From positions 9,086-73,085 of the forward strand of contig DATAUF010000121.1 of NCBI GenBank assembly GCA_036268405.1: DNA of 64,000 bases, in the 5' to 3' direction. Origin of the DNA: Mycobacteriales bacterium. Its GTDB lineage: Bacteria > Actinomycetota > Actinomycetes > JAFAQI01. A program made the translations under genes and the position numbers. The notes under the pieces are model-generated. The model had not been told where the DNA came from. It saw only the letters and a program-made list of their open reading frames with translations, and did not search any database. Position 1 is the stretch's first letter; each line of letters opens with the position of its first letter. This document shows positions 27,677-43,845 of the stretch, piece by piece.

Positions 27677-30355
27677 GTGACCTCACTAAAACAACTGAGT
27701 AAATCCAGTTATGTGGTGGTCGGCGGCGGCGCGGCGGGGACGTTGGTGGCGACCCGGTTGCTGGATGAGTCAGCCCGGCGACACCTGCCGATGAGGGTCG
27801 CAATCGTCGAGTCGCGCGACTCGATCGGGCGTGGCGTTGCCTACTCCGCCACCGACCGGCGCCACACGCTCAATGTTCCTGCCTCGAAGATGTCGGCGTA
27901 CCCGGAGGACGCCGATCACTTCTTGCGGTGGCTCGCGGCGCATGGTCGCGAGGTTGGGGAGTACGACTTCGTTCCTCGACGCTGGTACGGCGAGTACCTC
28001 GAAGACGTACTGGGAATCGCGACGCGACGCGCGACTGCCGCGGACCTGCACGTGGTCCAGGACCGCGTGATCGACATCGAACGCGTGGGCACCCGGTGCC
28101 GGGTGTTCCTGGCTTCCGGAACGGAGCTGGCTCCGGCCGATGGCGTCGTCCTCGCGCTTGGTCACCTTGGGATCGGCACGGAGTGGGCGCCGTCATCACT
28201 GCGGGATTCGTCTCGATTCATCGCAGACCCGTGGCCGCCGGGGGTGCTCGAAACAGTTGACGATGACCAGGATGTCCTCTGCGTCGGCGCGGGCCTCACC
28301 ATGGTCGACGTCGTTGCTGCGCTCGACCGGCCGGGCCGCGCCATTCACGTTGCCTCGCGTACCGGACATCTTCCGCGCCGTCACGCTGACGAGCTGCTGC
28401 CCGTCATGGAGGCACCGGAGTTCTCCTCGGATGCGCCGGGCCTCGCTGAGCTGCGAGCGGTGATGGCGTCACATCTCGGGAAGGCCAAGCGCCGCTACGG
28501 CAACTGGCGGCCGGCCGTCGACAGCATCCGCGCGATCACCCCGAAGCTCTGGGACGGTCTCGGCGCGGACGACCGCGTTGAGTTCATGGCGCGGGATGCG
28601 CGGGCGTGGGACGCGGCTCGTCATCGCATTCCGCCTGCGGGCGCTGAACTGGTCGCGGCGGCGCGCGACGCAGGGCGACTCGTCTCGGTGACAGGTGAGG
28701 TGGTCGGCGCGACGGAATCCTCGTCGGGGATTGCCGTCGAGCTCACCGACGGCACCGTTCGTACGGTGGGAGCCGTCGTCAACTGCACCGGCCCTTGTGA
28801 CCGGCCCGAGCGCAGCGCGGATGCGTTTGTCGGCGCGCTCCTTCAGCGTGGGCTCGTCCGTCCCGGTCCGCTCGGAATCGGCTTCGACACCTGCCAGGAC
28901 GGGCGCGTGCTCGACCGATCGGGGGAGTCCTCCGCGGCGGTGTTCACTCTCGGCGCGTTGCGAAAGGGCTCGCTGTGGGAGTCAACCGCGATGCCCGAGA
29001 TCCGGGTGCAGGCGGCCGAGCTCGCCCGATGTCTCGTCGGGCCGGCGGTCACCAATCCGGTACGCCCTCGCGATCAGTACGGCCTGGTCGTGTCGACCAC
29101 GGCCGATGCGGCCGACATGTGGCGGCAGGCTCTCGATCGGATCCGCAGGGTGCAGTCCGGCGGGCCCGAGCTGCTGGCTGCGGCAGTCGAGGTCGATCCG
29201 GCCTTCGCGCTGGGACATGCCGCGCTCGCGTTGCTCGCTCGTGAATGCGAGGCGGAGGTTGACGCGCTCGGCAGCCTTTCGGCTGCGGTCGACGCGCTTC
29301 GTCTGCGTGCCGACCCCCGGGAGATCAGCTTCGTGCGGATGGTCGAGGCACGCCTCACTCAGACAACGGCCGAGGGCGATCGCGAGCTGCTCCGTCACGT
29401 CCGGGAGTACCCGACGGACTGCCTCGCGGTAAGCGTCGCCCTGCCGACCATCGCGTTCAGTGGCGTCGCGCAGCCACTTGAAGACGCCTGGCACCTGGTC
29501 GATGTGCTCGCACCGGCGTACGGCGACGACTGGTGGTTCAACAGCCTCGTCGCCTTCACGCGACAGGAGCAGGATCGCTTCGCCGAGGCGGATGCGTTCG
29601 CGGGGCGTGCGCTCGACGCCGACCCGGCTGCGGGCCACGCCGCGCACGCGCGCGCCCACGTCACGTACGAGACCGGTGACCACGGCGCGGGCCTTGCCTG
29701 GCTGGACGCCTGGATCGCCGAGCACGGGGACGATACGAACCACCGGGCGCACTACGCATGGCATGCCGCGCTGCATGAGATCGCGATGGACGACGTCGAT
29801 GCGGCGTTGCGTCGCTATCACTCGCAGCTGGCGCCGCCATTCGTCACCGGCGCGCGGGCGCTCGTCGACTCAGTGTCGCTGTTGTGGCGGCTGCGGATGC
29901 TCGGGGTACCGGTCGGCGTAGATGATGTGCGTCCGGCGCTGGCGGCGGTTGACCGGTGCGTCTTCGACCGACCCGCCACTCTCTTCACCGCTTTGCATGC
30001 GGCGATCGGCCTTGCCGCCGTCGGCGACCTTGGTGCGCTCGGCCGGCTCGAGTCGTTCGCCGCCGACCATGAGAACCGCTCCTTCGCGATCGCGGTCGTC
30101 CCGCTCTGTCGCGGCCTTTCCGCGGTCGCTGGCGGGCGACCTGCCGATGCTGTTGGACCCCTTGCAGCGTTGCGCGTGATGGGCTTGCGCCGGTTCGGCG
30201 GCAGCGCGGCGCAACAGGAAGTCGTCGAGGAGACGCTGCTTCACGTGCTCGTCGCCTCCGGGCGGCAGCCGGAGGCCGCGGCATTGATCGGTGAGCGCCA
30301 TGCGCGGCGCGGGTCGCCTCTGGACGCTTCGCGGCTGGTTGCCCTGAAGCGGTAG
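27677..30355 (+). CDS. FAD/NAD(P)-binding protein (COG4529-like) fused to a C-terminal TTC38-like TPR domain
   Basis: Start set at GTG 27677 so the Rossmann strand YVVVGGGAAGTLVATRLLDE is N-terminal. The upstream 87 codons of the track ORF are Arg-rich and antisense to the previous gene. C-terminal ~380 aa are helical repeats (DPAFALGHAALALL..., HYAWHAALHEIAMDD...). Confidence 0.6.
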   Translation: MTSLKQLSKSSYVVVGGGAAGTLVATRLLDESARRHLPMRVAIVESRDSIGRGVAYSATDRRHTLNVPASKMSAYPEDADHFLRWLAAHGREVGEYDFVPRRWYGEYLEDVLGIATRRATAADLHVVQDRVIDIERVGTRCRVFLASGTELAPADGVVLALGHLGIGTEWAPSSLRDSSRFIADPWPPGVLETVDDDQDVLCVGAGLTMVDVVAALDRPGRAIHVASRTGHLPRRHADELLPVMEAPEFSSDAPGLAELRAVMASHLGKAKRRYGNWRPAVDSIRAITPKLWDGLGADDRVEFMARDARAWDAARHRIPPAGAELVAAARDAGRLVSVTGEVVGATESSSGIAVELTDGTVRTVGAVVNCTGPCDRPERSADAFVGALLQRGLVRPGPLGIGFDTCQDGRVLDRSGESSAAVFTLGALRKGSLWESTAMPEIRVQAAELARCLVGPAVTNPVRPRDQYGLVVSTTADAADMWRQALDRIRRVQSGGPELLAAAVEVDPAFALGHAALALLARECEAEVDALGSLSAAVDALRLRADPREISFVRMVEARLTQTTAEGDRELLRHVREYPTDCLAVSVALPTIAFSGVAQPLEDAWHLVDVLAPAYGDDWWFNSLVAFTRQEQDRFAEADAFAGRALDADPAAGHAAHARAHVTYETGDHGAGLAWLDAWIAEHGDDTNHRAHYAWHAALHEIAMDDVDAALRRYHSQLAPPFVTGARALVDSVSLLWRLRMLGVPVGVDDVRPALAAVDRCVFDRPATLFTALHAAIGLAAVGDLGALGRLESFAADHENRSFAIAVVPLCRGLSAVAGGRPADAVGPLAALRVMGLRRFGGSAAQQEVVEETLLHVLVASGRQPEAAALIGERHARRGSPLDASRLVALKR

Positions 30356-30514
30356 TTCGAAACACAACAGCGCATTGACGGCGCGAGGTCCTTTGGTTGG
30401 TCCGGATTCCGGCCGCCGTTCCACTTGTCCTGTGGATAAGAATTGTTGAGATTTCTTTTGGTACCAACTGATTCAGGGCCGAAACTGTCGTACCCGGGTC
30501 GTAGGTTTCGTGGC

Positions 30515-31699
30515 ATGGCAAGCCGGTCGGTCGAGCAGCTTCGTTGCTCGGTGGGTGCGGTCCTCGGCGAGGATCCGCACGGCCAGCCGGACTGTCTGGT
30601 CCTTGAGGACACCGAGGTGTTGCTCGCCGTGCAACGTCAGCTCGACGGTGCGCTGGCCGCCCGCCTGCAGGTGATCGACGCTCGTGACGCGACCACCAGC
30701 GAACGTGGCCGTTGCACCCGGGGGTGGCTGGTTGAGGAGCTGCAGCTGTCCGGTCCCGACGCCCGCGGCCGGCTGCGGGTGGCGCGGGCCGGGGTCGCAC
30801 GCCCGGCGGTGATCGAGGCGCTGCGCGGTGGGGAGATCGGTCACGACCACGCGAAGGTGATCCTCAATTTCCTGCCCAAGCTTCCCGACGCCGACGCGAA
30901 GGACCACGCCGAGAAGCTGCTGCTGGACGCGGCGAAGGTCACCGACCCCACCACGATGACCCGTGGCCTGCGCGAGCTCGCGGACCGGTTGTGCCTGAAC
31001 GAGACCGCGGAACAACGCGCGGCGCGGCGCCACGCCGACCGGTGGCTGCGGTTCACCGAAACCTTCAACGGGATGACCCGCTTCGACGGGATGCTCGACC
31101 CGGTCCAAGCCACCATCGTGCAGACCGCGCTCGCGCCGCTGTCCCAGCGGGCCGGGGAACACGACGACCGGACCATCGGGCAACGCCGCGCCGACGCGCT
31201 CGTGGACCTCGCCACCATGGCCATGAACCGCGGGGATCTGCCCGACACCGCCGGGGAACCCACCCAGCTCGTGGTCCAGACGTTCCTCGCCGACCTGACC
31301 CGCCGCCTGCAAGCCGGCGACACCTGCCACTCCACGCTGGGCGGCACCCCGATCACCCCCAACACCGTGCGGATGCTCGCCTGCGACGCCGGGATCATCC
31401 CCGCCGTGATGGGCGGACCCTCCGAAGTCCTCGACCTCGGCCGGTCCACCCGCACCTGGTCACGCGCGCAACGCAAAGCCGCGAAACTTCGCGCGAACAA
31501 CCACTGCGAAGCCCCGCTATGCCAAGCCGCCATCGAACGATGCCAACTCCACCACGAACAACAGTGGGCCGAACACCACGGCCCCACCGACCTCGACAAC
31601 GGCATCTACCTCTGCACCTACCACCACCGACTCACCCACCACACCCCCTGGACCATCACCAGAAACCATGCCGGCAGAGTCGAGATCCGGCGGACGTAG
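30515..31699 (+). CDS. DUF222 / HNH endonuclease domain protein (mycobacterial 13E12-repeat-family-like)
   Basis: N-terminal DUF222-like (LLAVQRQLDGALAARLQVIDARD...). C-terminal HNH: NNHCEAPLC...CQLHHEQQWAEHHGPTDLDNGIYLCTYHHRLTH. Lower-GC flanks on both sides. Confidence 0.8.
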   Translation: MASRSVEQLRCSVGAVLGEDPHGQPDCLVLEDTEVLLAVQRQLDGALAARLQVIDARDATTSERGRCTRGWLVEELQLSGPDARGRLRVARAGVARPAVIEALRGGEIGHDHAKVILNFLPKLPDADAKDHAEKLLLDAAKVTDPTTMTRGLRELADRLCLNETAEQRAARRHADRWLRFTETFNGMTRFDGMLDPVQATIVQTALAPLSQRAGEHDDRTIGQRRADALVDLATMAMNRGDLPDTAGEPTQLVVQTFLADLTRRLQAGDTCHSTLGGTPITPNTVRMLACDAGIIPAVMGGPSEVLDLGRSTRTWSRAQRKAAKLRANNHCEAPLCQAAIERCQLHHEQQWAEHHGPTDLDNGIYLCTYHHRLTHHTPWTITRNHAGRVEIRRT

Positions 31700-31859: not shown

Positions 31860-32234
31860 TTAGGCGGTCTGCGTCGGAAGGCCGGCGGCACGCCAGGCTC
31901 GGAAGCCTCCGGCGAGGTCGGTGGCGCGCCAGATGCCGAGCTGCTGAAGCGCCGACGCAGCGAGACTCGACGCGTACCCCTCATTGCAGAACAGCACGAT
32001 CCACGCGTCGCACGACGCGTCGGCGATACGCGCCTCGGATGCCGGGTCGAGTCGCCACTCCAGGACGTTGCGGTCGATGACCAGAGCTCCTGGGATGAGG
32101 CCTTCGATCACCCGGTTGACCTCGGGCCGGATGTCGACGAGGAGCGCACCTTCGCGCTGCGCGGCTGCGGCTTCCTTTGGGTCGAGCCGGCGCAGTCGCG
32201 TCCGCGCGTCCGCCAGCACCTCGTTGATCGTCAC
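31860..32234 (-). CDS. Single-domain rhodanese sulfurtransferase
   Basis: GTG 32234 overlaps the CDO-like stop (GTGA). LLVDIRPE...IVLFCNEGYASSLAASALQQLG with the active-site loop CNEGYAS. Only the 3' third of track ORF 31860-32660 is real. Confidence 0.75.
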   Translation of the reverse strand: MTINEVLADARTRLRRLDPKEAAAAQREGALLVDIRPEVNRVIEGLIPGALVIDRNVLEWRLDPASEARIADASCDAWIVLFCNEGYASSLAASALQQLGIWRATDLAGGFRAWRAAGLPTQTA

Positions 32235-32770
32235 GCCGAGATCGCTCCCTGGCGGGCGGACTGGCTGTCGTCCCGGGTCGACACCGTTCGCAGCCGGGCA
32301 AGCCCGCTCGGGTGTTGCGCGTAGAACGACATTGCGGACAACGGAGGGGAGTACGCATGCAGGCTTACCGCCGCGGCCGGTCCGGCGTTGTAGACGTCGT
32401 GCACCGTCGTGGGTGCGATCGCGACCGAGTTGCCGGCGGTCACGATGGTGGTCGTCGTGTCGAGCGGGGAGTCCGGGACCGCGCGGATCTCGGTAAGTGC
32501 GCCCTGCACGACGACGAATGCGCCCGAGGATCCCCCGTGGTCGTGCAGCTCCGTCCCCTGGCCGGTGAGCCAGCCGAGCAGCCAGATGTCGGCGGTGTCG
32601 TCGCCGTGCAGCCGTCGCCACCAACGCCCGCACGCATCGAAGCGCGCCAGGCTTTGCCACTGCGACGCGCGATCGGCTAGTCGCTCGAGGACGATCGCGA
32701 GCTGGTCTGCGTCGAGGCGCGACTGAGCCGGGAGAGTCCGTGTGGGCCGTAGTCGTTGGGGGAGTGCCAT
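32231..32770 (-). CDS. Cysteine dioxygenase type I-like cupin (thiol dioxygenase)
   Basis: WLLGWLTGQGTELHDHGGSSGAFVVVQGALTE...HDVYNAG...SLHAYSPPL has the cupin His triad pattern of CDO/3-mercaptopropionate dioxygenase homologs. Confidence 0.65.
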   Translation of the reverse strand: MALPQRLRPTRTLPAQSRLDADQLAIVLERLADRASQWQSLARFDACGRWWRRLHGDDTADIWLLGWLTGQGTELHDHGGSSGAFVVVQGALTEIRAVPDSPLDTTTTIVTAGNSVAIAPTTVHDVYNAGPAAAVSLHAYSPPLSAMSFYAQHPSGLARLRTVSTRDDSQSARQGAISA

Positions 32771-32805: not shown

Positions 32806-34197
32806 TTACTCCCGACCGGCCGTCGCTGAGACCAGATCCAGTTCTATTGCCGTCGCGAACGGGTCGTCCACCAACACGACGTCGCGGTCTGCGCGATCGA
32901 GCAGGGATGCGGCGATCGTCGCTCGGAATCCGCTTGCGCAGTGGATCCACAGGACACCTTGGGGGAGCTCGGTCATTCGCGCCGCCAGGTCGGCGAGCGG
33001 CACGTGCCACGAGCCGGGGATCGCGCCGTCACGAACGACCTCGTCCGGGCGCCGCACATCGATCACCTGCGCGCCGATGCCGAGCGCGTCCGCCAGGTCG
33101 ACGAAGGTGGCGATCGGGAAGCTGCGTCGTGGCAGGTTCGGGGCAATCTCGGCGAGATCACCGTATGCCGCCGCGGCCGGACGGTCGATCCCGATCCTGA
33201 CCAGCTGGCGCTGAGCCGCGGCGACCTGCTCAGCGGTTTCGGCAAGCAGGCTGAGCGGCTCGTCGTACGGATAGATCCATCCGAGGTACGTCGCGAACTG
33301 CGGTCCGAGCTCCACGGCGACAGTTCCGGCGAGGTGGTCAGCCGCGAAGCTGCGCCGGTCGCGGATGTCGACCACCCACTCGCCGGACGACAGCCGCTGG
33401 CCGATTTGGTCGGACCCGGCGATCTGCGGCGGACTGAGGTCCGCGGGGGGCGCGCCGGCCCGATTCCGTGGCGCCATGTGGACGTAATAGCTGGGGTACG
33501 GCGTGAAGCCGGCGATCGTACGTTCGACGAACCCGTCCTCATCATCCTCTGCGAGCGCAGCGTTGCTGCGGCGCTCGTCGCCGAGCGTGCCCGACGCGGA
33601 GTCGTGCTTGCCTGGGGGACCCGACGCGCAGAAGCTCCCGAAGCCATGCGTCGGAAACAGCCGCACCTCGTCAGGTAGAGGCGCCGTGAGCTCGCGGACT
33701 GAGCGGTACTGCGCGCGCGTCAGCTCACGGGTTCGGCTCTCATCGATCAGATCGGTGCGACCGACCGCGCCGTAGAGCAGTGAGCCGCCGCTGAACACCG
33801 CAGTCTCGCCACCCGATCCGGTGACCACATAAGAGAGGTGTCCGGGGGTATGGCCGGGCGTCGCGACCACCCTGATGTGGAGCGACCCGACCTGCAGCAT
33901 CGAGGCGTCGTCGACCGGCGTCCGCTCGTATGCCACTTCCTCGGATCGGGCGACGAGGTAGGGGACGCCAGCCGATCGTGCGAGGTTGAGCCCGCCCGTG
34001 ACGTAGTCGTTGTGGATGTGCGTCTCGCCGACCGAGCCAAGCACGAGCCCGAGCTTTCCCAGCATCTCGCTGATGCGATCGATGTCGCGCTGCGGGTCGA
34101 TCACGAAGGCGATTTCGCCGTCGTGCACGACGTAGCTGCGGTCGCCCAGCTCGTCCGTGCGGATCGTTTCGACCCGCAGGCGTGGTCCGCCGTTCAT
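32806..34197 (-). CDS. Persulfide dioxygenase (ETHE1/MBL fold) fused to rhodanese domains
   Basis: ETHIHNDYVTG (HxHxDH variant), ATPGHTPGHLSYVV, and C-terminal rhodanese modules (VVDIRDRRSF..., VIDVRRPDE...LWIHCASGFRATIAASLL with a catalytic Cys loop). Architecture resembles PDO-rhodanese fusions such as CstB/Blh. Confidence 0.8.
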   Translation of the reverse strand: MNGGPRLRVETIRTDELGDRSYVVHDGEIAFVIDPQRDIDRISEMLGKLGLVLGSVGETHIHNDYVTGGLNLARSAGVPYLVARSEEVAYERTPVDDASMLQVGSLHIRVVATPGHTPGHLSYVVTGSGGETAVFSGGSLLYGAVGRTDLIDESRTRELTRAQYRSVRELTAPLPDEVRLFPTHGFGSFCASGPPGKHDSASGTLGDERRSNAALAEDDEDGFVERTIAGFTPYPSYYVHMAPRNRAGAPPADLSPPQIAGSDQIGQRLSSGEWVVDIRDRRSFAADHLAGTVAVELGPQFATYLGWIYPYDEPLSLLAETAEQVAAAQRQLVRIGIDRPAAAAYGDLAEIAPNLPRRSFPIATFVDLADALGIGAQVIDVRRPDEVVRDGAIPGSWHVPLADLAARMTELPQGVLWIHCASGFRATIAASLLDRADRDVVLVDDPFATAIELDLVSATAGRE

Positions 34198-34214
34198 CTG
34201 TCCTCGCTCGTCTT

Positions 34215-34228
34215 GTGACCCAGGTCAC
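34215..34228. promoter_or_regulatory. Candidate operator in the divergent promoter region (GTGACC-CA-GGTCAC)
   Basis: Perfect 6-bp inverted arms with a 2-bp spacer, 18 nt upstream of the PDO-rhodanese start. It lies in the 141-nt spacer shared with the SBP56-like operon. The rest of the spacer is AT-rich (gctatatctaatcc). Confidence 0.3.
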
Positions 34229-34338
34229 GAACTCGTGTCGCGGTGGTTTGGGCTGTCCGATTCGTGCTATATCTAATCCAACCCACTCAAGTTAGGTGGG
34301 ATACTGAGCAAGGTAAAGCCGACGCACGGAGGGCATGG

Positions 34339-36705
34339 ATGCGGATCCGGTTGGGAAGTTCGAGGCTGGTGGCGGCGGGCGCCGCCTTGGCGGTCGCGTC
34401 AGGCGGTGGAGTGGCCGCGGCAGCCACTGGGTCGTCGGGCAGCACGCAGTCGTTGCTCCCGACGATCACGCGGACGGTCGACCAGATCCGCGAAGCGGGG
34501 AAGACCGTGGTTGGCAGCGTCAACTACACGGTCAACGAGAAGTCGCAGGCGCGTACGACCACGACCGACAGCTACGGAAACCCGCTGCAGGGCTTGTCCC
34601 TGCAGGGGCTGCCGAGCCTGCCGGGTGTCGGTCAGGCGCTTCCGTTCGAGACCGGCAACAACACGGACCTGGACAACGAGCCATCCAGCGAGAACACCGG
34701 CGAGTGCCCCGCAGCGGGCAAAGGTCACGAGTATCTGATCGTGTGGGCCGGCAAGATGAACGCCGCCGACCTGACCGGTTCGGACATCGAGGACCTGATC
34801 GGCGGCGGCGAGGTCAACCCCGAGGGCTTGAAGTCGCAGATCCCGATCGAGTTCCTCGAGACCGGCTCGGACATGATGGCCACGATTGACGCCGAGCCTG
34901 GTTGCTCGACCTACGGCAAGGTCGTCAACGTCTCGGTTGTCAGCGGCCCCGACGGCGTCGAGAACGAGCCGCACCACATGCAGTACACGTGGTACCCCGG
35001 CCAGACCGTGTGGGCCGGTGGCCTGTTCACCTCGCGAATCTTCACCTACGACCTCTCGGACCTGCCGCAGGTCAAGCTCACGAAGATCGACGAGCCCTGG
35101 TCGACCCCGAGCGGCAGCATCTGGGACGCGTTCGCGACGCTGCCCAACGGCGACGCCTACGGCACGCTGATGGGTGGCCCGCTGTACGCATACGGCACCA
35201 CGCCGGGCGCTGTCGTCGAGATCGCCGGCAGCAACCACCCGGGAGCGCAGCCGGGCGACATCCTCGGCGAGTGGCCGGCGACCGGCTCGAACAACCTTCT
35301 CCAGGGTGCGGACACCAACGGAAACGCGGTTGGTGCCCTCGCCAAGTCGGTCGGCGGCACCGTCTCCGACCTGCCGCACCTGGTGACCAGGGGTCAGGAC
35401 GACAGCGGCCTGGACTTGAACAACGGCTCGGTCAAATGCCCGGACTTCGGCAGTTGCGCCAACCCGCACGGCATCCAGATCCGCGCCGACCTCAAGACGA
35501 TGGTGACGTCGGACTACGCCGAGCCGGCGCAGATCATCGAGGATCCGGTCAAACCGACGAATGCGTACTACTTCAGACGCACGGTGAGGGTCTGGAGCTT
35601 CAGCTCCAAGGGCTGCTCAGGAAACCCGACACCTGGCGCGACGCTGAACAACCCGAAGATATGTGCCATCGACGTGATGCCACTGGGGCCGCGTGACGAC
35701 TCGAACCCGGCTCACGGCGAGAACCTCGGCATCATGGAGAACGGCTCGACGTGGGACTACCCGCTGCCGGACGGCCGGATCCCCAAGGGCTGGTTCTCGG
35801 AAAGCATGTGTGGTGGTGCCGTCTTCTACACGCCGGACATCACCAACACCAAGAAGCACCCGTGGCACGAGGTGTTCGACTCGACCGCTGCAGTCGCGGC
35901 GCTGAAGTCGAACGGCGCAGGCAAGGTTCCCGGTGGCGGCGACCTGAAGAACGAGCCAGCCGGCTGTGACGGTGCGGCGTGGGACGTGGTGAGCCCTGAC
36001 AACCGGTTCCTGGGTCACGCGGTCAACGGCCGTTACATCCTGCAGGACGACTTCGATGACGCGGGTACGCCGAAGATGGTCTACACCCTGAGCATCACGA
36101 AGCTGCTCGAGGCCGGCGATCACTACCAGTGCAACCTGTCGGACAACATCCGGGCTCTCGCCGACCCGACGCTGGGCGGCAAGGACTGCCCGACGGTGGC
36201 CGGTGTCGTCGCGATCAATGACCCGACCTCGGGTGGTCCTCACTGGGCGGAGTTCGACAACTTCCGCCTCGCCGCGATCAAGATCAAGGACCCGAAGACG
36301 GGCAAGATCGTGACGGACTATCACGCGCCGACTCGGATCGCGGAGGCGAACTACTTCGTCGCGCGGACCGGCGTCGATGGCAACCACACGGTCTGCATGA
36401 TCAACATGAACCCGAAGACGGGAAGCCTCTCGCTCGACACCAACTTCATCGACGAGACCGAGGGCACGCCCTGCGTTCAGTTCAACCGGCGGGACTGGCC
36501 AGACCCCAACATCAAGGGCTACTACAAGCCGCACGCGATGCTCTTCGTCGAGAACGGCGCGCCTGCCACGGGCTTGACCCCCTACGGGCACTCGTACGGT
36601 CCGAACTGTGAGTTCGGCAAGGTCGTCGATGGGCAGTGCCGTGGCTACTGGGGGGAGCCCATCGACATGGGCGCCGATACGGCCGGCCTGAAGTACGAGG
36701 AGTGA
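34339..36705 (+). CDS. Secreted, enlarged SBP56 (selenium-binding protein / methanethiol oxidase)-like beta-propeller protein
   Basis: ATG 34339 lies 5 nt after GGAGGG. Signal peptide [21 protein letters not shown]. Blocks that resemble my recollection of SELENBP1: [24 protein letters not shown] vs [44 protein letters not shown] vs [34 protein letters not shown] vs [19 protein letters not shown] vs SHLYVWDW; GGPHW vs GGPQM; [17 protein letters not shown] vs VKGGLKLNPNFLVDF. 788 aa against ~470 for canonical members. Confidence 0.5.
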   Translation: [788 protein letters not shown]

Positions 36706-39536
36706 CGCGCCGCCGTCTGCGTCGGGCCGGTTCGCTGGCCCGACGCAGCGGCAGTGTGGTGCTGCTTGCCGCGGTCCTCGGACTCGCGACGGCGGCCCCC
36801 GCCGCCGCGCATCCTTACTTGCTCAGCAGCGACCCCGCGAGCGGCGCGATCCTGACGACCGCGCCGGGCCAGATCGACATCGGCTACACCGAAGGCCTCG
36901 ACCGCTCGTACTGCACCGTCGTCCTCATCGCACCGGACGGCCATCGGATCTCAACCCACCAGGCCTCCGCGGATGCCCCGACCGAGCTGTCCGTGGTCCC
37001 GGACTCTTCGCTGGCCGAGCAAGGTACCTACGCCGTGAACTGGACGGCGGTCGGCGACGACGGCCACACCGTGATCGGAAGCTTCAGCTTCAGCATCGGA
37101 CATCCTTCGGCCAACTCCGCGGTGCAGTCCGGCTCATCGGATGTCACCGGCAGTGCCTCCTCGCCACGAGGAGCGCAGCGGCTGCTGCGAACCGTCCTGC
37201 CGTTCGCATCCGTCGTCCTCGTGGCGCTGCTGCTGCTCGGCGGCGTTCTCGCCGCCACGGGACGGCGGGCGTCGCGAGTCCGATGGGGTGCGCTCGCGGT
37301 TGTTTTCGCGGTGGAGATCGCCCTTGCGGCCCTTGTCCTGTCCTCCGGCGGGCTCTCCGCCTTCGGCTCATCAGCCACCGGACGTCGGTTGATCGCGGAG
37401 CTCATTCTCACGGCCCTGGTGCTCCCCGTCGTCATCGACGGTGGCCGGCTCGCGGCCGGTCAACGCCCTTGCGGCTGGCGTCGCTGGCTCGCTGCGCTCA
37501 GTTCGCTCGGACTGCTGGTGGTGCTCGCCGACTCCGGTCACGCGGCTTCGCAGCCGAGCTCGCGCCGCGACCTCGTGCTCGCGGTCTACTCGGTTCACCT
37601 GCTGGCGGTCAGTGTCTGGATCGGCGCCCTGCTCGCGGTCATCCTCCGGATGCGATCAGGCGGCGGTGAGGCGCCGACGATGTCGACAGCAGATCCGAAA
37701 CGCTCGCTGCGCCCACTCGTTGCGGTGTCGCTGGTCGCGGTGCTCGGCACTGGGATCGCGACTACCGACTGGGGTCTGCGCACGCTCGGGGACGTCCCGG
37801 GCACCTTGTACGGCAAGCTCGCCGTCGCGTTGCTGATCTTGTTCGTCGTGATGGTCTGGCTCGGGATCGTGGGCTCGTCGATGATGCCGGCTGCCACGGG
37901 GGAGAGGAGTCGGCTGCCGCGACTCAGCGCCGCGCTGATGGGTGCGGAGGCGGTCGTCGCGGCGGCGGCGCTGCTGGTCGCGGGAATCCTTGGCCAGGTC
38001 TCACAGCCGCTCGACGAGCCGTACGCCTCGCAGGCCTATGCGACGTCGACCGGCGTACCGCTCGCCGTGACGGCGGTCGGCGCCGATTCGCTGGACGTCG
38101 CCACCCTCGCGCCCGGCATCGTCGGCCGAAACACACTTGTCGTCGAGGTGGGTCAGGCGGACGAGGACGACTTTCTCAGTCCGGCACCCGGCGTCCGTTC
38201 AGTGACGGCGACGTTGTCGTGTGGCGGATGCGGCGAGCCCGACCAGCAGGTCGCCCTTCATTCGACCGGCGGTGGTGCCGAGTGGACCGCCGACGTCTCC
38301 CTGTCCGAGGCGGCGTCGTGGCTGGTCACCGCGGCTGTGACGCGCTCGGGTGAGCGACCTGGCACCGCGCGGTTCGCCGAGCGCGTCTCGCCGGCCGAGC
38401 TTCCGCACCAGATCGTTGTCGGCGTCCCGACGTCACTGTCAGGACCGACCGGTGAGACCTGCCGTGACGAGATCCTCGGTCTCCAGGTGGCACTCGAGGA
38501 TCTCAACTCGCAGGCCGCCAACCACGGCGACCTGATCCGCGTCGTGGCGGTCGACCTGCACGACGGTGTCCCCGCGGCCATGGCGCGACTTCAGTCGCTC
38601 GGAGCCCGCCTGATCGCCTTGCCGTGCGGAACGGCGAGCGAGGTCCAGGGGGCGACAGCAGCCGCGCGCGACGCCGGTCTGCCGGTTGTCGCGGGTGCCG
38701 CGTCGATTCCTCAGGACCGCGCCGGCGTGTGGTCGACACAGCCGTCGTGGCGCGCCGAGGGCGCGGCGATCGGCACCCAGGCGCTACGCCAGCTCGCGAC
38801 CTCGGTCACCGTGCTCGTGGGCGACACGGTCGTCGACCGGACCGAGCTGGCCGGTCTGCGCTCGGCGCTGGCCGGGCGCCAGGTCGCGCTTCACATGACG
38901 GGATTCCCGTCGAAGCCGCTCCCGTTCGTCTCCGCATTGCAGCGCCACAACGCTGACGTCGTGGCGTTGCTCGGCGATCGGCATGAGGCCGCGCCGGTTG
39001 TTCACGCGTTCTCTGCGGTGTCACAGATCAACGGCTGGGTGCCTTCCCACGGCATCCTTGCGTCCGCTCAGCTGATGAGTACGGACTTCATCGACGCCGC
39101 GGGCACGATCACCAGACTCGGGGGGATCGAGTTCGCGAGCGACATCAATCCGTTCGACCCGGTGTCGCAGTACTACGCACAGCGCCTTCGCGCGCTCGCG
39201 CCCGGCGTACGGCCCTCCTTCGACGGACTGCACGGCTATCAAGCGGGTCTCGCGATCGCGCAGGCACTGCGCGATGGCGGCGGACGTCCGTCGTCGAGCT
39301 CTTTGATCAGCCTGCTCGGCAGCCGGTTCGCCAAGTTCACGGTCGGGAGCTACCGCCTCGGCTGGAATCAGACTGGAGGCACCTCGACATCGCTGGCGTT
39401 CTTTCGATCGACATACGTGAACCCGATGGCGATGCCGTCCGACACGCCTGGCGGCGCCTCAGCCCTGGCCCACGAGGGCACCTTCCTCGACAGCGGCGGC
39501 TTCGAGCAGGTCGCGCCGTTCCGGATCACCTCATGA
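36702..39536 (+). CDS. CopC - CopD - type I periplasmic-binding-protein triple fusion
   Basis: GTG 36702 overlaps the upstream stop (GTGA). The signal peptide ends AAPAAA|HPYLLSSDP, so the mature N-terminus is His as in Cu(II)-binding CopC. CopC body: GTYAVNWTAVGDDGHTVIGSFSFSIG. Then ~8 hydrophobic CopD-like segments. C-terminal ~380 aa are Peripla_BP_6-like (QIVVGVPTSLSGPTGE...LIALPCGTAS...). Confidence 0.75.
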   Translation: MTRRRLRRAGSLARRSGSVVLLAAVLGLATAAPAAAHPYLLSSDPASGAILTTAPGQIDIGYTEGLDRSYCTVVLIAPDGHRISTHQASADAPTELSVVPDSSLAEQGTYAVNWTAVGDDGHTVIGSFSFSIGHPSANSAVQSGSSDVTGSASSPRGAQRLLRTVLPFASVVLVALLLLGGVLAATGRRASRVRWGALAVVFAVEIALAALVLSSGGLSAFGSSATGRRLIAELILTALVLPVVIDGGRLAAGQRPCGWRRWLAALSSLGLLVVLADSGHAASQPSSRRDLVLAVYSVHLLAVSVWIGALLAVILRMRSGGGEAPTMSTADPKRSLRPLVAVSLVAVLGTGIATTDWGLRTLGDVPGTLYGKLAVALLILFVVMVWLGIVGSSMMPAATGERSRLPRLSAALMGAEAVVAAAALLVAGILGQVSQPLDEPYASQAYATSTGVPLAVTAVGADSLDVATLAPGIVGRNTLVVEVGQADEDDFLSPAPGVRSVTATLSCGGCGEPDQQVALHSTGGGAEWTADVSLSEAASWLVTAAVTRSGERPGTARFAERVSPAELPHQIVVGVPTSLSGPTGETCRDEILGLQVALEDLNSQAANHGDLIRVVAVDLHDGVPAAMARLQSLGARLIALPCGTASEVQGATAAARDAGLPVVAGAASIPQDRAGVWSTQPSWRAEGAAIGTQALRQLATSVTVLVGDTVVDRTELAGLRSALAGRQVALHMTGFPSKPLPFVSALQRHNADVVALLGDRHEAAPVVHAFSAVSQINGWVPSHGILASAQLMSTDFIDAAGTITRLGGIEFASDINPFDPVSQYYAQRLRALAPGVRPSFDGLHGYQAGLAIAQALRDGGGRPSSSSLISLLGSRFAKFTVGSYRLGWNQTGGTSTSLAFFRSTYVNPMAMPSDTPGGASALAHEGTFLDSGGFEQVAPFRITS

Positions 39537-40177
39537 CTGTCACGCGGTCCGGAGCCGGCTGCGCCGCGACTCTCGCATTGCTCATCACAGTCTCCGGGTG
39601 CGGCGGCGGCTCGACCCCGCTGCCGTCGCACCCGGATCCAACGTCATCGGCCACCGGCTCCTCCGCCGCGGCGCCGATCTCGACCGGCTGCTCACCGAAC
39701 CTGGTTCCCACGGGCTACACGATCGACGCGAAGCACTCCGGCAAGCTGACCGCCCACAGCTACAGCGCAGCAGCCGAGGTCCAGGCTGCGCTCGAGTACG
39801 ACCAGCTGCAGTCCGGCGCGCGAGAGGTGTTCGTGCACTCGGCCGGCCGGCGCACCGACGGCGTCGCGACCTGCGTCGCCATGCAGTTCCCCTCTGCCCA
39901 TCTCGCCGGACGGTTCTTCATGTCCTACCGAGCGCTCCGCAAGCAAGCCGGGTCGCTCGTGGCGGAGGTCTCGATCCCTGGCGGTGCAAGCGGCCTGTCA
40001 GGTGCAACCGGCTACCTCGAGAGGGACCAGTCATTCCGCGGCTACCAGATCGCTTCGACCGATGTCATCGAGTTCTCCGGGCAGGACGGGCGCAGGCTCG
40101 ACATCGTGTCGGTGGCCGGCGCGACTCCGTCGCGGAGCCTCGGACACAAGCTGCTCGTCGCGATGGCGAATCAGTGA
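39533..40177 (+). CDS. Lipoprotein, unknown function
   Basis: ATGA overlap with the CopCD-PBP stop. Lipobox LLITVSGC. Confidence 0.55.
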   Translation: MTVTRSGAGCAATLALLITVSGCGGGSTPLPSHPDPTSSATGSSAAAPISTGCSPNLVPTGYTIDAKHSGKLTAHSYSAAAEVQAALEYDQLQSGAREVFVHSAGRRTDGVATCVAMQFPSAHLAGRFFMSYRALRKQAGSLVAEVSIPGGASGLSGATGYLERDQSFRGYQIASTDVIEFSGQDGRRLDIVSVAGATPSRSLGHKLLVAMANQ

Positions 40178-40848
40178 TGAGCATCAACCGCACAGTCGCG
40201 GCCGTGATCGGCGTCGCTCTGCTGGGAGCGGTGTCCGCGGGCTGCAGCAGCAGCGGAAGCAACGGGGCCGCGGCACCGACGATCTCGCCTTCGGCCACCG
40301 GCAGCAGCCAGGTCACGCCCGCCTCCGGTCTGCCCACCCCGCTCGCCGGCTCGACCCTGACCGCGGCCGATGTGGCCGACCCAGGCCTGCCGTCGAAGAT
40401 CGGGCCGGGCAAGCTGTCGAACGCGACGATCAAGAAGCTCGTCCAGTACTTCGAGGACAACGTCGCCAAGGCGTACGCCGACGGAGATGCCAACGCGCTC
40501 GAGCACTACCTGGCGGGTCCGATGCTCTCCGGCAACCGCGCCACGATCACGTTGCTGGCCAAGCAGGACAAGCTCAACATCTTCCGGATCCGGGTGCAGA
40601 AGATCACGGCGGAGACGAACGAGGCCGAGCACGTCATCATCGACATGACCGGCGACATGGTCTTGAACTACTTCATCGACAGCAAGACCCACAAGATCCT
40701 CGAAAACGGTCTTCCCGGCCCCAGCCAGGTGCAGTTCGCGATCTTCCTCGACCGCAACCCCAAGACCAACACGTGGTACTGGACGGGGGAGCAGTCCGAG
40801 ACCACTGGCGGTGCGACGAGCGGCACGACCGTGGAGCAGGCGCCGTGA
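40177..40848 (+). CDS. Lipoprotein with NTF2/ARC6-IMS-like C-terminal domain
   Basis: TGATG junction. Lipobox GAVSAGC, Ser/Pro/Ala linker, then YLAGPMLSGNRATITLLAKQDKLNIFRIRVQKI...VIIDMTGDMVLNYF. Only the 3' part of track ORF 39598-40848 is real. Confidence 0.55.
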   Translation: MSINRTVAAVIGVALLGAVSAGCSSSGSNGAAAPTISPSATGSSQVTPASGLPTPLAGSTLTAADVADPGLPSKIGPGKLSNATIKKLVQYFEDNVAKAYADGDANALEHYLAGPMLSGNRATITLLAKQDKLNIFRIRVQKITAETNEAEHVIIDMTGDMVLNYFIDSKTHKILENGLPGPSQVQFAIFLDRNPKTNTWYWTGEQSETTGGATSGTTVEQAP

Positions 40849-41801
40849 TCTCGCATGCACCGCTAGCGGCCGCGACAGCGCTCGCCGGCTGTCTGTTTGC
40901 CGCTGCTCCCGCGACGGCGGGGACCGCGGGTCCGCCCGGTGTGCTGCAGCTCACCGGAGTGCTCCACCTGTCCAAGGGCACGTGTGACGGCGACAAGCCC
41001 GGCGGCAGCTATCTGTCGGTGACGTTCGGCACCAAGGTCATCGGCAACCCTGCGTCGAGCTGCGAGCACGGCGCGGTCACGCTGCTTTCGCCTGGTCGAC
41101 CGGGCCTGTCGACAGACGCGTTCACACCGCTGTCCGACGAGGCGTTCGACAGTCGAGGCAACCCGGTCGCCACGTCGTTGACGCAGCCGGTCCGGTTCGG
41201 ATCCCACCTGCTCAGCCTGGTGAGCTCCGGGCAGGATCTGCAGGACGCGCCGACCGGCCGGGCGACGTTCGCGTTTCCGCATCTCTACGTCACCGGGACC
41301 AAGGTCCTCGCCGATGTCCGGTCGATTCAGGCGCTCTACGACGGCGCGGCCGGGACGACGTGCGCATCCGGCGCGGGGAGTGGCTGCTGGCTGATCGGAG
41401 CCGAGCGCGCGACGGGGACGTACGACGCGCAGACACATCGGGTGACGCTGTCCTGGTTCTCCGGGCAGTCCTTCGTCCAGGAGTCGGCCGGTACCGTCGT
41501 CCACCTGTCGGGAGTGTTCGTCGGAGCCAAGCCCAAGCCGCTCAAGCGGGGCACGGCCGTCGACCTCGGCACCTCCAGCTTCGCCGCGGGACCCGCGCCC
41601 AGGTCGAACGCTCGCACGATGGCTGCTCGTCACCGGCGCGGCAGTACTCGAACCGGCGCCCAGCAGGCGACGGCATCCGCCCGCGCGGCAACCACCGCCG
41701 CGTCCTCCGGCAACCGTCGGCTCGCGGCGATCCTCGCCGCCGCCATGCTTCTCGTGCTCGCGGCGTCGCATGGCGCCGCTCTTCGTAAGGGACGCTCGTG
41801 A
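40845..41801 (+). CDS. Uncharacterised secreted protein family, paralog 1 (C-terminal TM anchor)
   Basis: GTGA junction. Family motifs: LTGVLHLSKGTCDG..GGSYL, TLLSPG, EAFDSRGN, ATGTYDAQTHRVTLSWFSG, VHLSGVF. C-terminal basic/Ala-rich linker plus TM LAAILAAAMLLVLAA. Confidence 0.6.
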   Translation: MISHAPLAAATALAGCLFAAAPATAGTAGPPGVLQLTGVLHLSKGTCDGDKPGGSYLSVTFGTKVIGNPASSCEHGAVTLLSPGRPGLSTDAFTPLSDEAFDSRGNPVATSLTQPVRFGSHLLSLVSSGQDLQDAPTGRATFAFPHLYVTGTKVLADVRSIQALYDGAAGTTCASGAGSGCWLIGAERATGTYDAQTHRVTLSWFSGQSFVQESAGTVVHLSGVFVGAKPKPLKRGTAVDLGTSSFAAGPAPRSNARTMAARHRRGSTRTGAQQATASARAATTAASSGNRRLAAILAAAMLLVLAASHGAALRKGRS

Positions 41802-42502
41802 CCTCGCAACGTCGGCTCGCCGGACTGGCCGTCACACTCGCCGTCGTTGTCGCCGGATGTAGCGGCGGGCACGGCTCGTCGAACGCGACGTCGACGAAGC
41901 TGACCGGGCTGTTCAAGATCACGCCGGGTGCCTGCGCGACGGCGAAGGGGAAGCCCACCGGCAGCTACCTCGTTGTCATCTCCGCCGCGGCCGGCAAGAC
42001 CGTGGGAAACAAGCACGGCGGATGCGTGAACCCGGCATACACGTTGTTGCGTCCCGGGGCCGACGGCGGCCTCGTCACCGGTGAGTTCCAGGACGTCTCA
42101 GGTGCGGCGTTCGACAGCCACGGCAACGGCCGGGCCAACCGGATCGTGGTGCCGACCGCCTTCGGGTCGCGGCGCTTCGGGATCGCAACGAACACCCACG
42201 ACCAACAGGGAGCCGCGAACGGTCAGCCCGCGTACCCGCGACCGGCGGCAATCGCGACCGGCTCGTCGCTACGCGTAGACCTCCGTTCACTCGTCATCAC
42301 CTACGGCGGGCCTGCAAGCTCGACCTGCGAACAGGCATTCGGGGTCGGGTGCTGGGAGCTCGGCTCGGAGAACGCCACCGGGACCTATGACGCGACCAGT
42401 GCCCACTACCTCATCAACTGGTTCTCGGGGGAGTCCTTCACGGCGAAGGGTGACTCCATCGAGGTGCACCTCGAAGGCACATTCGTCCCGCAGTCCGGGT
42501 GA
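41798..42502 (+). CDS. Uncharacterised secreted protein family, paralog 2 (lipoprotein)
   Basis: GTGA junction. Lipobox VVVAGC. Motifs: LTGLFKITPGACA..TGSYL, YTLLRPGADGGLVTGEFQ, AAFDSHGN, ATGTYDATSAHYLINWFSG, VHLEGTFVP. Confidence 0.65.
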   Translation: MTSQRRLAGLAVTLAVVVAGCSGGHGSSNATSTKLTGLFKITPGACATAKGKPTGSYLVVISAAAGKTVGNKHGGCVNPAYTLLRPGADGGLVTGEFQDVSGAAFDSHGNGRANRIVVPTAFGSRRFGIATNTHDQQGAANGQPAYPRPAAIATGSSLRVDLRSLVITYGGPASSTCEQAFGVGCWELGSENATGTYDATSAHYLINWFSGESFTAKGDSIEVHLEGTFVPQSG

Positions 42503-43095
42503 GCAGCCGCGTCGTAAGTGCGCTGGCAGCCGGCATTTTTGTCGTGCTCTGCGCCGCGGTGCCCGTCGCGGCGTTCACGCATCAGGGCCGCGCCGACGTC
42601 CCCGCTGCGCGAGTCGCGCCGCTGTCGACCGCCGATCGCAAAGCGCTCCTCGCCGCGCAGAAGCTGATTGCTGATCTGCCCGAGGCGCTCGCCGAGGTGC
42701 CACGCGCGGGCGCGGATGTCGCCGGCATCGGTCCGTCGGCCGCCCGCGCCACCCTCGGCGGCTCCGCCGAGCTTCGGCCGCTGGCCGAAGCGGTCGATGG
42801 ACGCGTGCCCGCCGTGACGTTGCTCGAAGCGTCGTATCGAGCCCTGCTCGATGACCGCCCGCTGCCGGACCCGGTCGCGTTGTCGAGTGCACTCCAGACG
42901 TTGCAGATCGTCGAAGGCGACGTGCTCCCGGCGGTGCGCGTCATTGCCTTGGAGCACGGTCGGCATGTGTCGGCGGGGGGAGCGCTCGACGCGGTCGAGC
43001 GCGACCCTGCGACATCAGCACTCGGCCGGCTGCTCGTCGACTGGCAGCAGGTCTACGGCGTCTTCGTGCTCGTCGAGCAGGCCGCTGCCCGCTGA
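42499..43095 (+). CDS. Secreted/membrane-anchored Ala/Leu-rich protein, unknown function (last gene of the operon)
   Basis: GTGA junction. N-terminal hydrophobic segment ALAAGIFVVLCAAVPVAAF. Confidence 0.45.
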   Translation: MSSRVVSALAAGIFVVLCAAVPVAAFTHQGRADVPAARVAPLSTADRKALLAAQKLIADLPEALAEVPRAGADVAGIGPSAARATLGGSAELRPLAEAVDGRVPAVTLLEASYRALLDDRPLPDPVALSSALQTLQIVEGDVLPAVRVIALEHGRHVSAGGALDAVERDPATSALGRLLVDWQQVYGVFVLVEQAAAR

Positions 43096-43137: not shown

Positions 43138-43845
43138 CTAGCCGGCCGGGGTGAAGTGACCCTGCAGGTGCCAGTAGCCGGAGAAGCCGTTGAACGGACC
43201 ACCGACGATCTGGCTGGTCCACGTCAGGACGAACTTCCCGGTCGTCGCGTCGTACGTCCCCGTCACCGGCGTGGTGTTGCCCGGCATCGATCCGCCTGGC
43301 TTGGGTGAGCCCTGGTTGAAGTACTGGTTGTTCCAGGACGCGCCCCACGACTCGATCTGACCCGACAGCTTGCCGTTCGAGTCGGTGATCGACGGAGCCG
43401 GGACGGTGCGCTTGCTCTGCGGATCGACCTTGTCGGTCTCGATCCCGAAGTTGATGGCGGTGAACGACTGCGGCACCGTGATCAGATCCGCGAGTGAGTT
43501 GCCGTTGGCGTCGAACGCCTTGGCGGGGCTCGGCTGGAATGTCCCCGTGGTCAGCCCGCCGTCCTTGCCAGGACGCTCGGCGGAGAACGACGGGTCCTTG
43601 CACGTCGAGTCCGGGTTGGTGAAGTACGGGCCCTTCGCGAGCGTGCCGTTCGCCTCGATCATTCGGAAGTAGGTGCCCGTCGGGCTTGCGGCCTTGCAGT
43701 TGCCGGCGGTGAAGTGGAACGTCCCGACTAGGGGCTTGCCACCACTGGCCGGCGTGCCGCTGCCTGAGGAGCCGCCACCGCAAGCTGCTGCTGCGAAAGC
43801 GAGCGCGGCGGCTGAGACTGCGAACCGTGCGGTGCGGGTGGTCAT
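43138..43845 (-). CDS. Uncharacterised secreted protein family, paralog 3 (lipoprotein)
   Basis: ATGA overlap with the upstream membrane-protein stop. Lipobox LAFAAAAC. Motifs: LVGTFHFTAGNCK..TGTYF, GKDGGLTTGTFQ, KAFDANGN, WNNQYFNQGSPKPGGS, VTGTYDATTGKFVLTWTSQ, WHLQGHFTP. Only the 3' part of track ORF 43138-44370 is real. Confidence 0.65.
   Translation of the reverse strand: MTTRTARFAVSAAALAFAAAACGGGSSGSGTPASGGKPLVGTFHFTAGNCKAASPTGTYFRMIEANGTLAKGPYFTNPDSTCKDPSFSAERPGKDGGLTTGTFQPSPAKAFDANGNSLADLITVPQSFTAINFGIETDKVDPQSKRTVPAPSITDSNGKLSGQIESWGASWNNQYFNQGSPKPGGSMPGNTTPVTGTYDATTGKFVLTWTSQIVGGPFNGFSGYWHLQGHFTPAG

Follow-up and report, generated by a model that had tools for sequence, protein, structure and literature searches.

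Does the gene at positions 34339-36705 of this stretch of DNA from a Mycobacteriales metagenome-assembled genome (contig DATAUF010000121.1) encode a methanethiol oxidase (MTO), a relative of such enzymes with another task, or something unrelated? We refer to the whole stretch of 64,000 nucleotides as the window, to the gene's 788-amino-acid product as the query, and number residues according to the query unless stated otherwise. A preliminary description had taken the protein for a very divergent, decorated and exported member of the SBP56 family. To our knowledge, SBP56 proteins are the only known MTOs. Their mechanism is disputed, with disagreement over which residues bind copper, whether there is a catalytic cysteine, and which of H2S and sulfane sulfur is formed. 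Here, we find that the query is an exported, highly conserved propeller of the SBP56 superfamily, and that it belongs to a third, uncharacterised clade. The fold and ancestry are those already known for SBP56, whereas the altered ligand set, the lack of a catalytic cysteine, the different maturation partner and the large decorations are new.

A divergent branch of the SBP56 superfamily

The gene (forward strand, stop codon included) lies within an open reading frame (ORF) spanning 34243-36705. A ribosome-binding site, GGAGGG, is present on the same strand at 34328-34333, 5 nucleotides 5' of the ATG at 34339, and this start is supported by the homologue P0002 (787 amino acids), which aligns over 100% of the query. 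We found 470 homologues at E<=1e-3, which together with the ribosome-binding site and synteny rule out a spurious ORF. The homologues comprise long forms of 740-860 amino acids (57-89% identity to the query), forms of about 690 amino acids (52-57%) and a large group of short forms of about 610 amino acids (38-44%).

Searched directly, the query is barely recognisable as SBP56. It scores 12.5 bits against the Pfam SBP56 model (PF05694; E 0.061, residues 177-215 only), where the gathering score is 34, and 36.7 bits against the NCBIfam MtoX equivalog model (NF052453; residues 173-259 only), where the cut-off is 650 bits; relatives and intermediates score 24-72 bits against the latter. A phmmer search of PDB sequences with the query returned nothing relevant, and the only SBP56 protein matched by the family profile was 2ECE, marginally (E 0.041). 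Membership is therefore not settled by sequence search alone.

The connection is made through relatives. A Pfam SBP56 match at E<=0.01 was found in 28 of 46 sampled relatives (best 5.6e-7), and a profile search of 1.84 billion representatives gave 678 proteins at E<=1e-3. Intermediates of canonical size (436-470 amino acids) reach E 1e-23 to 1e-61 with the family profile and, at 38-74 bits, clear the PF05694 threshold as well. Using hhalign, the family aligns to these intermediates with 100% probability (E 1e-67, 402 columns), and the intermediates in turn align to vertebrate SELENBP1 with 99.8% probability (E 1e-27, 365 columns). Aligning the family to vertebrate SBP56 directly gave 88.5% probability (E 2.7e-6, 273 columns) with the region of Glu252 misaligned, and this comparison is superseded by the route through the intermediates and by broader alignments. 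Thus, although the query itself falls below the PF05694 threshold, its homology is recovered by profile-profile comparison through the intermediates.

The AlphaFold2 (AF2) model of the query (predicted template modelling score 0.76; mean predicted local distance difference test, pLDDT, 68) points the same way. Its top Foldseek match in the PDB is the SBP56 protein ST0059 of Sulfolobus tokodaii (2ECE, the only solved SBP56 structure), with an E-value of 6.4e-14 and a target-normalised template modelling (TM) score of 0.65. The two differ considerably; they share 12% identity, the query-normalised TM score is only 0.40, and the query is larger by about 330 residues, which lie in loops, in a hairpin and linker at the N-terminus and in a tail at the C-terminus. 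The runners-up are lactonase/isomerase-type seven-bladed propellers (6IGB, 1RI6 and 1JOF; E 1e-8 to 1e-7), some five orders of magnitude behind. We also considered copper-propeller enzymes, namely thiocyanate dehydrogenase and the nitrous-oxide-reductase type, but neither appears in the top 50 structural matches. Residues 1-38, 74-121, 157-169, 325-372, 396-411 and 743-788 are disordered in the model. As modelled, the protein has an SBP56-type propeller fold with a predicted seven blades, the number also predicted for MtoX (Hyphomicrobium sp. VS; Ruegeria pomeroyi SPOA0269).

The query and SBP56 proteins align end to end. In multiple alignments, every motif on which the preliminary description relied is present in the query and collinear with SBP56: ENEPHH (residues 208-213), a 10-residue motif (232-241), KIDEP (249-253), MVTSDYAEP (388-396), RVWSF (417-421), GGPHW (632-636) and a 13-residue motif (691-703). 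These pair in the same order with motifs of SELENBP1 and MtoX, for instance GGPQM and KGGLKLNPNF in SELENBP1. The homology to the SBP56 superfamily, including the copper-dependent thiol oxidases human SELENBP1 and Caenorhabditis elegans SEMO-1, extends over the whole domain and is secure. The intermediates, the profile-profile comparisons, the fold and the collinearity thus all support the original view of a divergent, decorated and exported subfamily.

How the decorations are arranged needs some correction. The query is 310-350 amino acids longer than canonical members (436-476 amino acids; MtoX has about 435), in keeping with the excess of about 300 first reported. Behind a signal peptide at about residues 1-29/31 (34339-34431, forward strand; the exact cleavage site is approximate) comes an N-terminal addition (34432-34713, forward strand), recognised from the alignment and pLDDT. 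It consists of a family-wide beta-hairpin (residues 42-66, pLDDT 66-84) and a low-complexity linker restricted to long forms (residues 67-125, pLDDT below 50 at 74-121). The extension past the canonical start is about 90-105 amino acids in the alignment, rather than the roughly 130 that had been claimed. The propeller core spans residues 126-739 (34714-36555, forward strand), with about 31 strands in the AF2 model. It carries a family-wide insert at residues 141-176 and, in long forms only, a short insert at 421-434 and a larger one, predicted to be disordered, at 296-372. The last of these is the insertion previously placed at about 300-400 and is real, whereas the one placed at about 480-640 is alignable propeller core, broken across the family by inserts or replaced segments at about 515-545, 586-618 and 641-662. 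A C-terminal tail (residues 740-788; 36556-36702, forward strand) containing Cys757 and Cys767 is again confined to long forms and has low pLDDT. Judged by these alignments, the 788-amino-acid form is the most decorated subfamily, distinguished by its extra linker, disordered loop and cysteine-containing tail.

To place the family, canonical sequences were taken from plasmid records; in these, the R. pomeroyi mtoX gene has SCO and cytochrome-c-peroxidase (MauG-like) genes as neighbours, and a Skermanella homologue has an SCO gene alongside. SELENBP1-type references came from Rubrobacter, Haloferax, Deinococcus and Azospirillum. The family has, over 388 shared columns, 21.7% identity to MtoX, 18.8% to SELENBP1-type proteins and 27-37% to the intermediates. 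A neighbour-joining tree, which is distance-based, midpoint-rooted and indicative only, resolves a SELENBP1-type clade, an MtoX-type clade and a third clade; in the last of these, the intermediates split off earliest and the query family is the most derived. The query therefore falls outside the MtoX-type clade, although the family shares with that clade an NE[PA]HH motif and the absence of the GWNACSS insert. One 440-amino-acid member of the third clade (P0339; L096 5347-6669 and L097 5250-6572) lies inside a soluble di-iron monooxygenase operon with MmoB/DmpM, two Phenol_Hydrox subunits, TmoB, a Rieske protein and a cupin; other intermediates neighbour a Na/sulfate symporter (L094) or a di-haem oxidoreductase (L098). 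Since the intermediates sit in such different operons, function within the third clade is not uniform.

With one genome scanned per species, relatives turned up in 373 genomes of the Actinomycetota, Chloroflexota and Dormibacterota. Carriers include metagenome-assembled genomes of Mycobacteriales, Frankiaceae and Sporichthyaceae, members of the Acidimicrobiia, and the genera Pseudonocardia (including P. sulfidoxydans), Kutzneria, Saccharopolyspora, Amycolatopsis, Sciscionella, Fodinicola and Planosporangium; the genes in loci L007 and L008 are 88-89% identical to that of the query. P. sulfidoxydans is a degrader of dimethyl disulfide and dimethyl sulfide. Strain NBRC 16205 encodes a 610-amino-acid family member (L057, 10001-11602), on a contig that ends 699 bp downstream, too soon to show a partner gene of the kind described below. 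In our searches, named relatives carried the annotation 'hypothetical protein' or 'secreted protein', and we found no description of the family in the literature, nor gene-level information in publications on actinobacterial SBP56 or MTO proteins and on P. sulfidoxydans. This amounts to an annotation gap; the Pfam and NCBIfam models miss a family spread over 373 species-level genomes, some of them from the cultivable genera Kutzneria, Saccharopolyspora, Pseudonocardia and Amycolatopsis.

The putative metal site and the cysteines

Mutagenesis of human SELENBP1 and C. elegans SEMO-1 has shown that H73, H74, H137, H140, D189 and E252 are each needed for activity (PMC10362175). In MtoX, a set of histidines has been proposed as copper ligands, the third of which was described as strictly conserved in all three domains of life (PMC5739008). 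We mapped these positions onto the query using an alignment of 46 family sequences that includes R. pomeroyi MtoX. The histidine pair (human H73/H74, R. pomeroyi H88/H89, Hyphomicrobium H89/H90) corresponds to H212/H213 and is invariant in all 46, as are the glutamate (human E252, R. pomeroyi E269, query E467) and the C-terminal histidine (human H457, R. pomeroyi H424, Hyphomicrobium H412, query H732). The third histidine (human H137, R. pomeroyi H141, Hyphomicrobium H140), present in every canonical SBP56 protein aligned, is D263 in the query and an invariant Asp in all 46 family sequences. Human H140 corresponds to F144 in R. pomeroyi and to A266 in the query, with Trp in short forms. For human D189 the alignment register is uncertain, the counterpart being Gly203 or the Asp of 'GYD' in R. 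pomeroyi and Q380 or G378 in the query. Of the six essential SELENBP1 residues, the query thus keeps three (H73, H74 and E252).

The family has also gained invariant residues of its own, namely a C373-A-N375-P-H377-G motif, H560 and H635, which join H212, H213, D263, E467 and H732; H377 and H635 are found in some intermediates too. Overall, about 100 positions are invariant in a propeller of about 600 amino acids. By these alignments, the putative metal site is partly kept and partly rebuilt. The ligand conservation hoped for in the preliminary description therefore holds for the His-His pair, the Glu and the C-terminal His, and fails for the third His, for the positions of H140 and D189, and for the canonical cysteine motifs. 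This makes the family a natural variant in which the third His has become Asp and the SBP56 cysteines are gone, and its activity or inactivity would directly probe the disputed proposals for the SBP56 mechanism.

The query does have many extra cysteines, as first noted: 14, none of which matches a canonical SBP56 cysteine. All 14 are kept in 12 of 12 aligned long forms, and seven (373, 491, 543, 598, 617, 686 and 712) are family-wide; short forms have one more, about 12 residues before Cys373. Co-occurrence of the cysteines follows adjacent pairs (123-189, 367-373, 426-442, 491-543, 598-617, 686-712 and 757-767), and from this conservation we infer up to seven disulfides, which would fit an exported protein. 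Cys123 was considered as a counterpart of the catalytic Cys in the MtoX TCQSPYM motif and rejected; it strictly co-occurs with Cys189 and is absent in short forms, which points to a disulfide.

Export itself is indicated by an N-terminus of three Arg followed by a hydrophobic stretch. Inspection of this signal peptide revealed neither a twin-arginine motif nor a lipobox, and the protein contains no further hydrophobic segment; a Sec-type signal peptide is therefore likely. The earlier label 'Sec-exported' thus stands as regards the signal peptide, with the Sec route a probable one. Of the 46 aligned family sequences, with the query counted among them, 33 have a clear signal peptide, and most of the others are truncated or have mis-called starts. 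In several short forms of about 610 amino acids (e.g. P0041, P0068 and P0076), the signal peptide carries an RR-x-hydrophobic motif. Judging from this motif, these forms could use the twin-arginine translocation (Tat) system, and members of the family may vary in being exported by Tat or by Sec. An extracytoplasmic location is shared with MtoX, which also has an N-terminal signal peptide, whereas SELENBP1 and SEMO-1 are cytosolic and lack one.

A copper-linked partner, sulfur genes and possible functions

The stop codon of the query gene overlaps the start of the next gene as GTGA (36702-36705). This partner gene (36702-39536, forward strand) encodes, from GTG 36702, a 945-amino-acid fusion of CopC, CopD and periplasmic-binding-protein (PBP) regions, as identified with Pfam and NCBIfam. 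Pfam finds CopC at 62.8 bits (cut-off 23.3) and Peripla_BP_6 at 40.1 bits, and NCBIfam matches both CopC and CopD, the latter at E 1.6e-9 but with a score that does not reach its cut-off. Of eight hydrophobic segments, one is N-terminal (a signal or anchor) and seven, at partner residues 160-438, lie in the CopD region. The CopC domain has a DDGH motif, and its mature N-terminus would begin with His (AAAH|PY). The C-terminal region of about 500 amino acids is extracytoplasmic with a type-I PBP fold. CopC/CopD copper-handling systems include CopCD fusions such as Bacillus subtilis YcnJ. The partner resembles these in having a CopC domain followed by seven hydrophobic segments that match CopD, if weakly, and differs from them in its large PBP-fold region and its coupling to an SBP56-like propeller.

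In 65 of the 66 loci with at least 2 kb of downstream sequence, the very next gene, in the same orientation, encodes a homologue of the partner. The exception is L020, in which the family gene is cut by the contig start and no partner was found in the 10 kb present downstream. Unbiased clustering of neighbouring ORFs likewise gave the partner as the only near-universal neighbour. Pfam CopD was matched by 19 of 44 partners (E<=0.01; best E 4.9e-13) and CopC by 8 of 44, and the partners of short forms lack CopC. Because the intermediates of canonical size lie in different contexts, where a CopD partner is missing, the pairing is specific to the query family. A further copper-protein type, a cupredoxin, is encoded in locus L002. 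A literature search found no role of CopCD in loading an SBP56 enzyme. In MtoX, the dedicated metal-handling genes immediately downstream are of SCO1/SenC and MauG type; the CopD pairing thus suggests a different copper-loading route for an exported enzyme in Gram-positive bacteria.

Genes associated with sulfur metabolism recur around the family. Divergently transcribed from the query gene is a gene (32806-34197, reverse strand) for a 463-amino-acid, persulfide-dioxygenase-like protein with a metallo-beta-lactamase (MBL) fold and a rhodanese domain (Pfam Lactamase_B and Rhodanese). It is followed by a gene for a sulfurtransferase-like rhodanese-domain protein (31860-32660, reverse strand; Pfam Rhodanese E 1.5e-11, with NCBIfam matches). 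Further along, a 979-amino-acid FAD/NAD(P)-binding flavoprotein is encoded at 27416-30355 (forward strand), its family match (NAD_binding_9) being confined to the N-terminal third. The MBL-rhodanese protein shares its domain pair with persulfide dioxygenase-rhodanese fusions of the Blh/CstB type and recurs with the family, but it matches the curated NCBIfam Blh and GloB models only weakly (30-64 bits, far under the cut-offs) and is found in a minority of loci. Directly upstream of the SBP56-like gene in locus L001 is the flavoprotein gene, and in L002 (22059-22466) a flavoprotein homologue forms a fusion with MBL-fold and rhodanese domains, suggestive of one polypeptide that oxidises sulfide/persulfide.

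Across the 42 loci in which each side extends for at least 8 kb, the second commonest neighbour is a YeeE/YedE-type Sulf_transp gene (22 of 42, e.g. in Kutzneria buriramensis). Comparative genomics has connected the Sulf_transp family with the use of selenium. An MBL-rhodanese gene occurs in 7 of these loci and a NAD_binding_9 / Pyr_redox_2 flavoprotein gene in 8, and further recurring neighbours are Rrf2 regulators, DUF4395, rhodanese, cysteine dioxygenase and a sulfate- or molybdate-type ATP-binding-cassette transporter. A link to sulfane-sulfur and persulfide-dioxygenase metabolism is another feature in common with MtoX; in R. pomeroyi, MTOs feed a persulfide dioxygenase (PMC10936201).

Combining these strands, we propose that the query is an extracytoplasmic and probably copper-dependent oxidase of a reduced sulfur compound. 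With both substrate and metal deduced from context, we consider this composite about evenly poised between right and wrong. The protein would leave the cytoplasm unfolded by means of its signal peptide, presumably through Sec, and would fold outside the cell, where its paired cysteines could form the disulfides described above. There, metal, most likely copper, would be delivered by the translationally coupled CopC-CopD-PBP protein; delivery outside the cell is consistent with a signal peptide that has no Tat motif. An O2-dependent oxidation might then take place at the remodelled central site, predicted to comprise His212, His213, Asp263, Glu467 and His732 and possibly the family-specific His377 and His635, with a small thiol such as methanethiol, or sulfide or sulfane sulfur, as candidate substrates. 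The gene context suggests that the product would be handled in the cytoplasm by the flavoprotein, MBL-rhodanese and rhodanese proteins or, alternatively, taken up by the YeeE-type channel encoded after the partner in about half of the relatives. Should the association with sulfur prove correct, the genes would point to a sink or uptake path for volatile or reduced sulfur compounds that has gone unnoticed in soils.

Several observations weigh against such an oxidase. Half of the residues essential in SELENBP1 are changed (H137 to Asp263, H140 to Ala266, and D189 to Gln380 or Gly378). The cysteine motifs required in Rhodobacteraceae MTOs (GWNACS, HT[VI]HC and GGDCS in cluster 1, TCQSPYM in cluster 2; PMC10936201) are absent from the query, the equivalent positions in the alignment being deleted or non-Cys; the CSSC, HxxHC and GGDC motifs of SELENBP1 are likewise missing. 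No unpaired Cys is evident in the query, and hence no candidate thiol-binding cysteine; a later study found the TCQSPYM-type cysteine to be relevant but not essential (PMC13603461). A tblastn search with the R. pomeroyi SCO and MauG-like proteins found nothing in the window or in 86 family loci. The CopD assignment is partly weak, with a Pfam score of 20.9 bits for the partner in the window (cut-off 32.1) and only the 19 of 44 partners mentioned above at E<=0.01. The sulfur genes, too, are frequent around the family and not universal. Finally, the AF2 model, with its mean pLDDT of 68, is limited, and the convergence of the proposed ligands is putative.

A bolder reading, which we put forward tentatively and hold to be less probable than its negation, is that the query is not an MTO but the catalytic subunit of an undescribed, three-part extracytoplasmic module for a new copper-dependent transformation of a sulfur compound. 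The parts may be the SBP56 propeller with its rebuilt metal centre, the dedicated CopD-PBP membrane partner and, often, a YeeE-type channel. In soil Actinomycetota, Chloroflexota and Dormibacterota, such a module may allow a sulfur compound from the environment to be taken up or detoxified and, in the long forms, may be assisted by a lipoprotein fold without known relatives (described below).

It is doubtful that the query is a true MTO, that is, a distant and decorated orthologue catalysing the MtoX/SELENBP1 reaction (CH3SH + O2 -> HCHO plus H2S or sulfane sulfur). The shared superfamily and fold, the NE[PA]HH motif and missing GWNACSS insert of the MtoX clade, export as in MtoX, the adjacent persulfide-dioxygenase-like gene and the family member in the dimethyl-disulfide degrader P. 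sulfidoxydans all speak for it. However, the MtoX equivalog score of 36.7 bits is far from the 650-bit cut-off, the third His, present in every canonical SBP56 protein aligned, is Asp in 46 of 46 family sequences, and there is neither a catalytic Cys nor an SCO1 or MauG gene. The family also forms a separate clade with 21.7% identity to MtoX over 388 columns, within which the differing operons of the intermediates show that function is not uniform. On account of the low score, the third-clade position and the lack of SCO1/MauG neighbours, we do not regard the query as an MtoX orthologue.

Rather unlikely, too, is a non-enzymatic protein that captures or buffers metal outside the cell and works with CopC-CopD in copper acquisition or tolerance, with the sulfur genes present by coincidence or owing to copper-thiol chemistry. 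The near-universal CopD-type neighbour (65 of 66 loci), the replacement of half of the SELENBP1 catalytic residues, the missing catalytic cysteines, and the abundance of invariant His, Asp and Glu residues, which might do no more than bind metal, would all be accommodated. Yet the residues that were kept (the His-His pair together with the Glu and C-terminal His) are those common to all active SBP56 enzymes, and some 100 invariant positions exceed the needs of a simple binding protein. Sulf_transp follows the gene pair in 22 of 42 loci, and no classical copper-resistance genes (CopA, CopB or CsoR) were seen in the loci examined.

We consider it improbable that the SBP56 scaffold was recruited for chemistry unrelated to sulfur or copper, such as that of a lactonase-like or other hydrolase. 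The next-best structures are indeed lactonase/isomerase-type propellers, the active site is heavily remodelled, and relatives in the clade occur in unrelated operons such as the di-iron monooxygenase cluster; nonetheless, the SBP56 structural match is better by five orders of magnitude, residues of the metal-ligand type are invariant, and the copper-protein partner and recurring sulfur genes would be left unexplained. Selenium handling, in which selenite or selenide would be bound or transformed outside the cell and passed to the YeeE/YedE-type channel, is very improbable despite the name of the superfamily and the frequent Sulf_transp gene with its family's ties to selenium, given that selenium is dispensable for SELENBP1 activity (PMC10362175), that the Cys proposed to bind it in plant and mammalian proteins is absent here, and that selD, selA and other selenium-use genes were not seen in the loci examined.

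The wider locus

The divergent promoter region between the MBL-rhodanese and SBP56-like genes contains two elements, both identified by aligning five upstream regions. A CRP-like palindrome, TGTGA-N6-TCAC, is located at 34214-34228 and is also present upstream in loci L008 and L009. A conserved non-coding block of about 40 nucleotides, GTGCTATATCT..CAACCCACTCAAGTTAGGTGGG (about 34264-34302), is almost invariant in the five related loci, while the flanking non-coding DNA has diverged. An Rfam scan gave no match at this block, and Rfam and tRNA scans detected no RNA elements near the SBP56-like gene. The block might act as a leader element or as a promoter together with an operator.

Between the flavoprotein and sulfurtransferase genes lies a DUF222 gene (30443-31699, forward strand). 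DUF222 is typically associated with HNH endonuclease. As the flavoprotein gene in L001 directly adjoins the SBP56-like gene, the DUF222 gene looks like a local insertion or rearrangement.

Downstream of the partner, the forward strand contains five overlapping ORFs, d1-d5 (39533-43095; 214, 223, 318, 234 and 198 amino acids), most of which encode lipoproteins. Gene calls on L099 place them with overlaps of 1-4 nucleotides. They are syntenic only with the long and ~690-amino-acid forms, and none matched a Pfam or NCBIfam family. A lipoprotein domain of about 200 amino acids is common to d3, d4 and two further ORFs (43138-44370, reverse strand, and 44832-45881, forward strand), with 33-40% identity between copies; a search of 5.8 billion proteins gave only 65 homologues. 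The d4 protein is 100% identical to NCBI VHV76_11075. Its AF2 model is confident (pLDDT 90.7) and all-beta, and neither Foldseek (best E 0.21, TM below 0.2) nor sequence searches matched it to any PDB entry; on the strength of this model, the d3/d4 domain may represent an undescribed fold. Lacking a family or fold match, d1-d5 shed no light on the proposed mechanism.

The only matches in the window from Rfam or ARAGORN are two tRNAs, tRNA-His(GTG) at 53383-53458 on the reverse strand and tRNA-Arg(TCT) at 54216-54289 on the forward strand.

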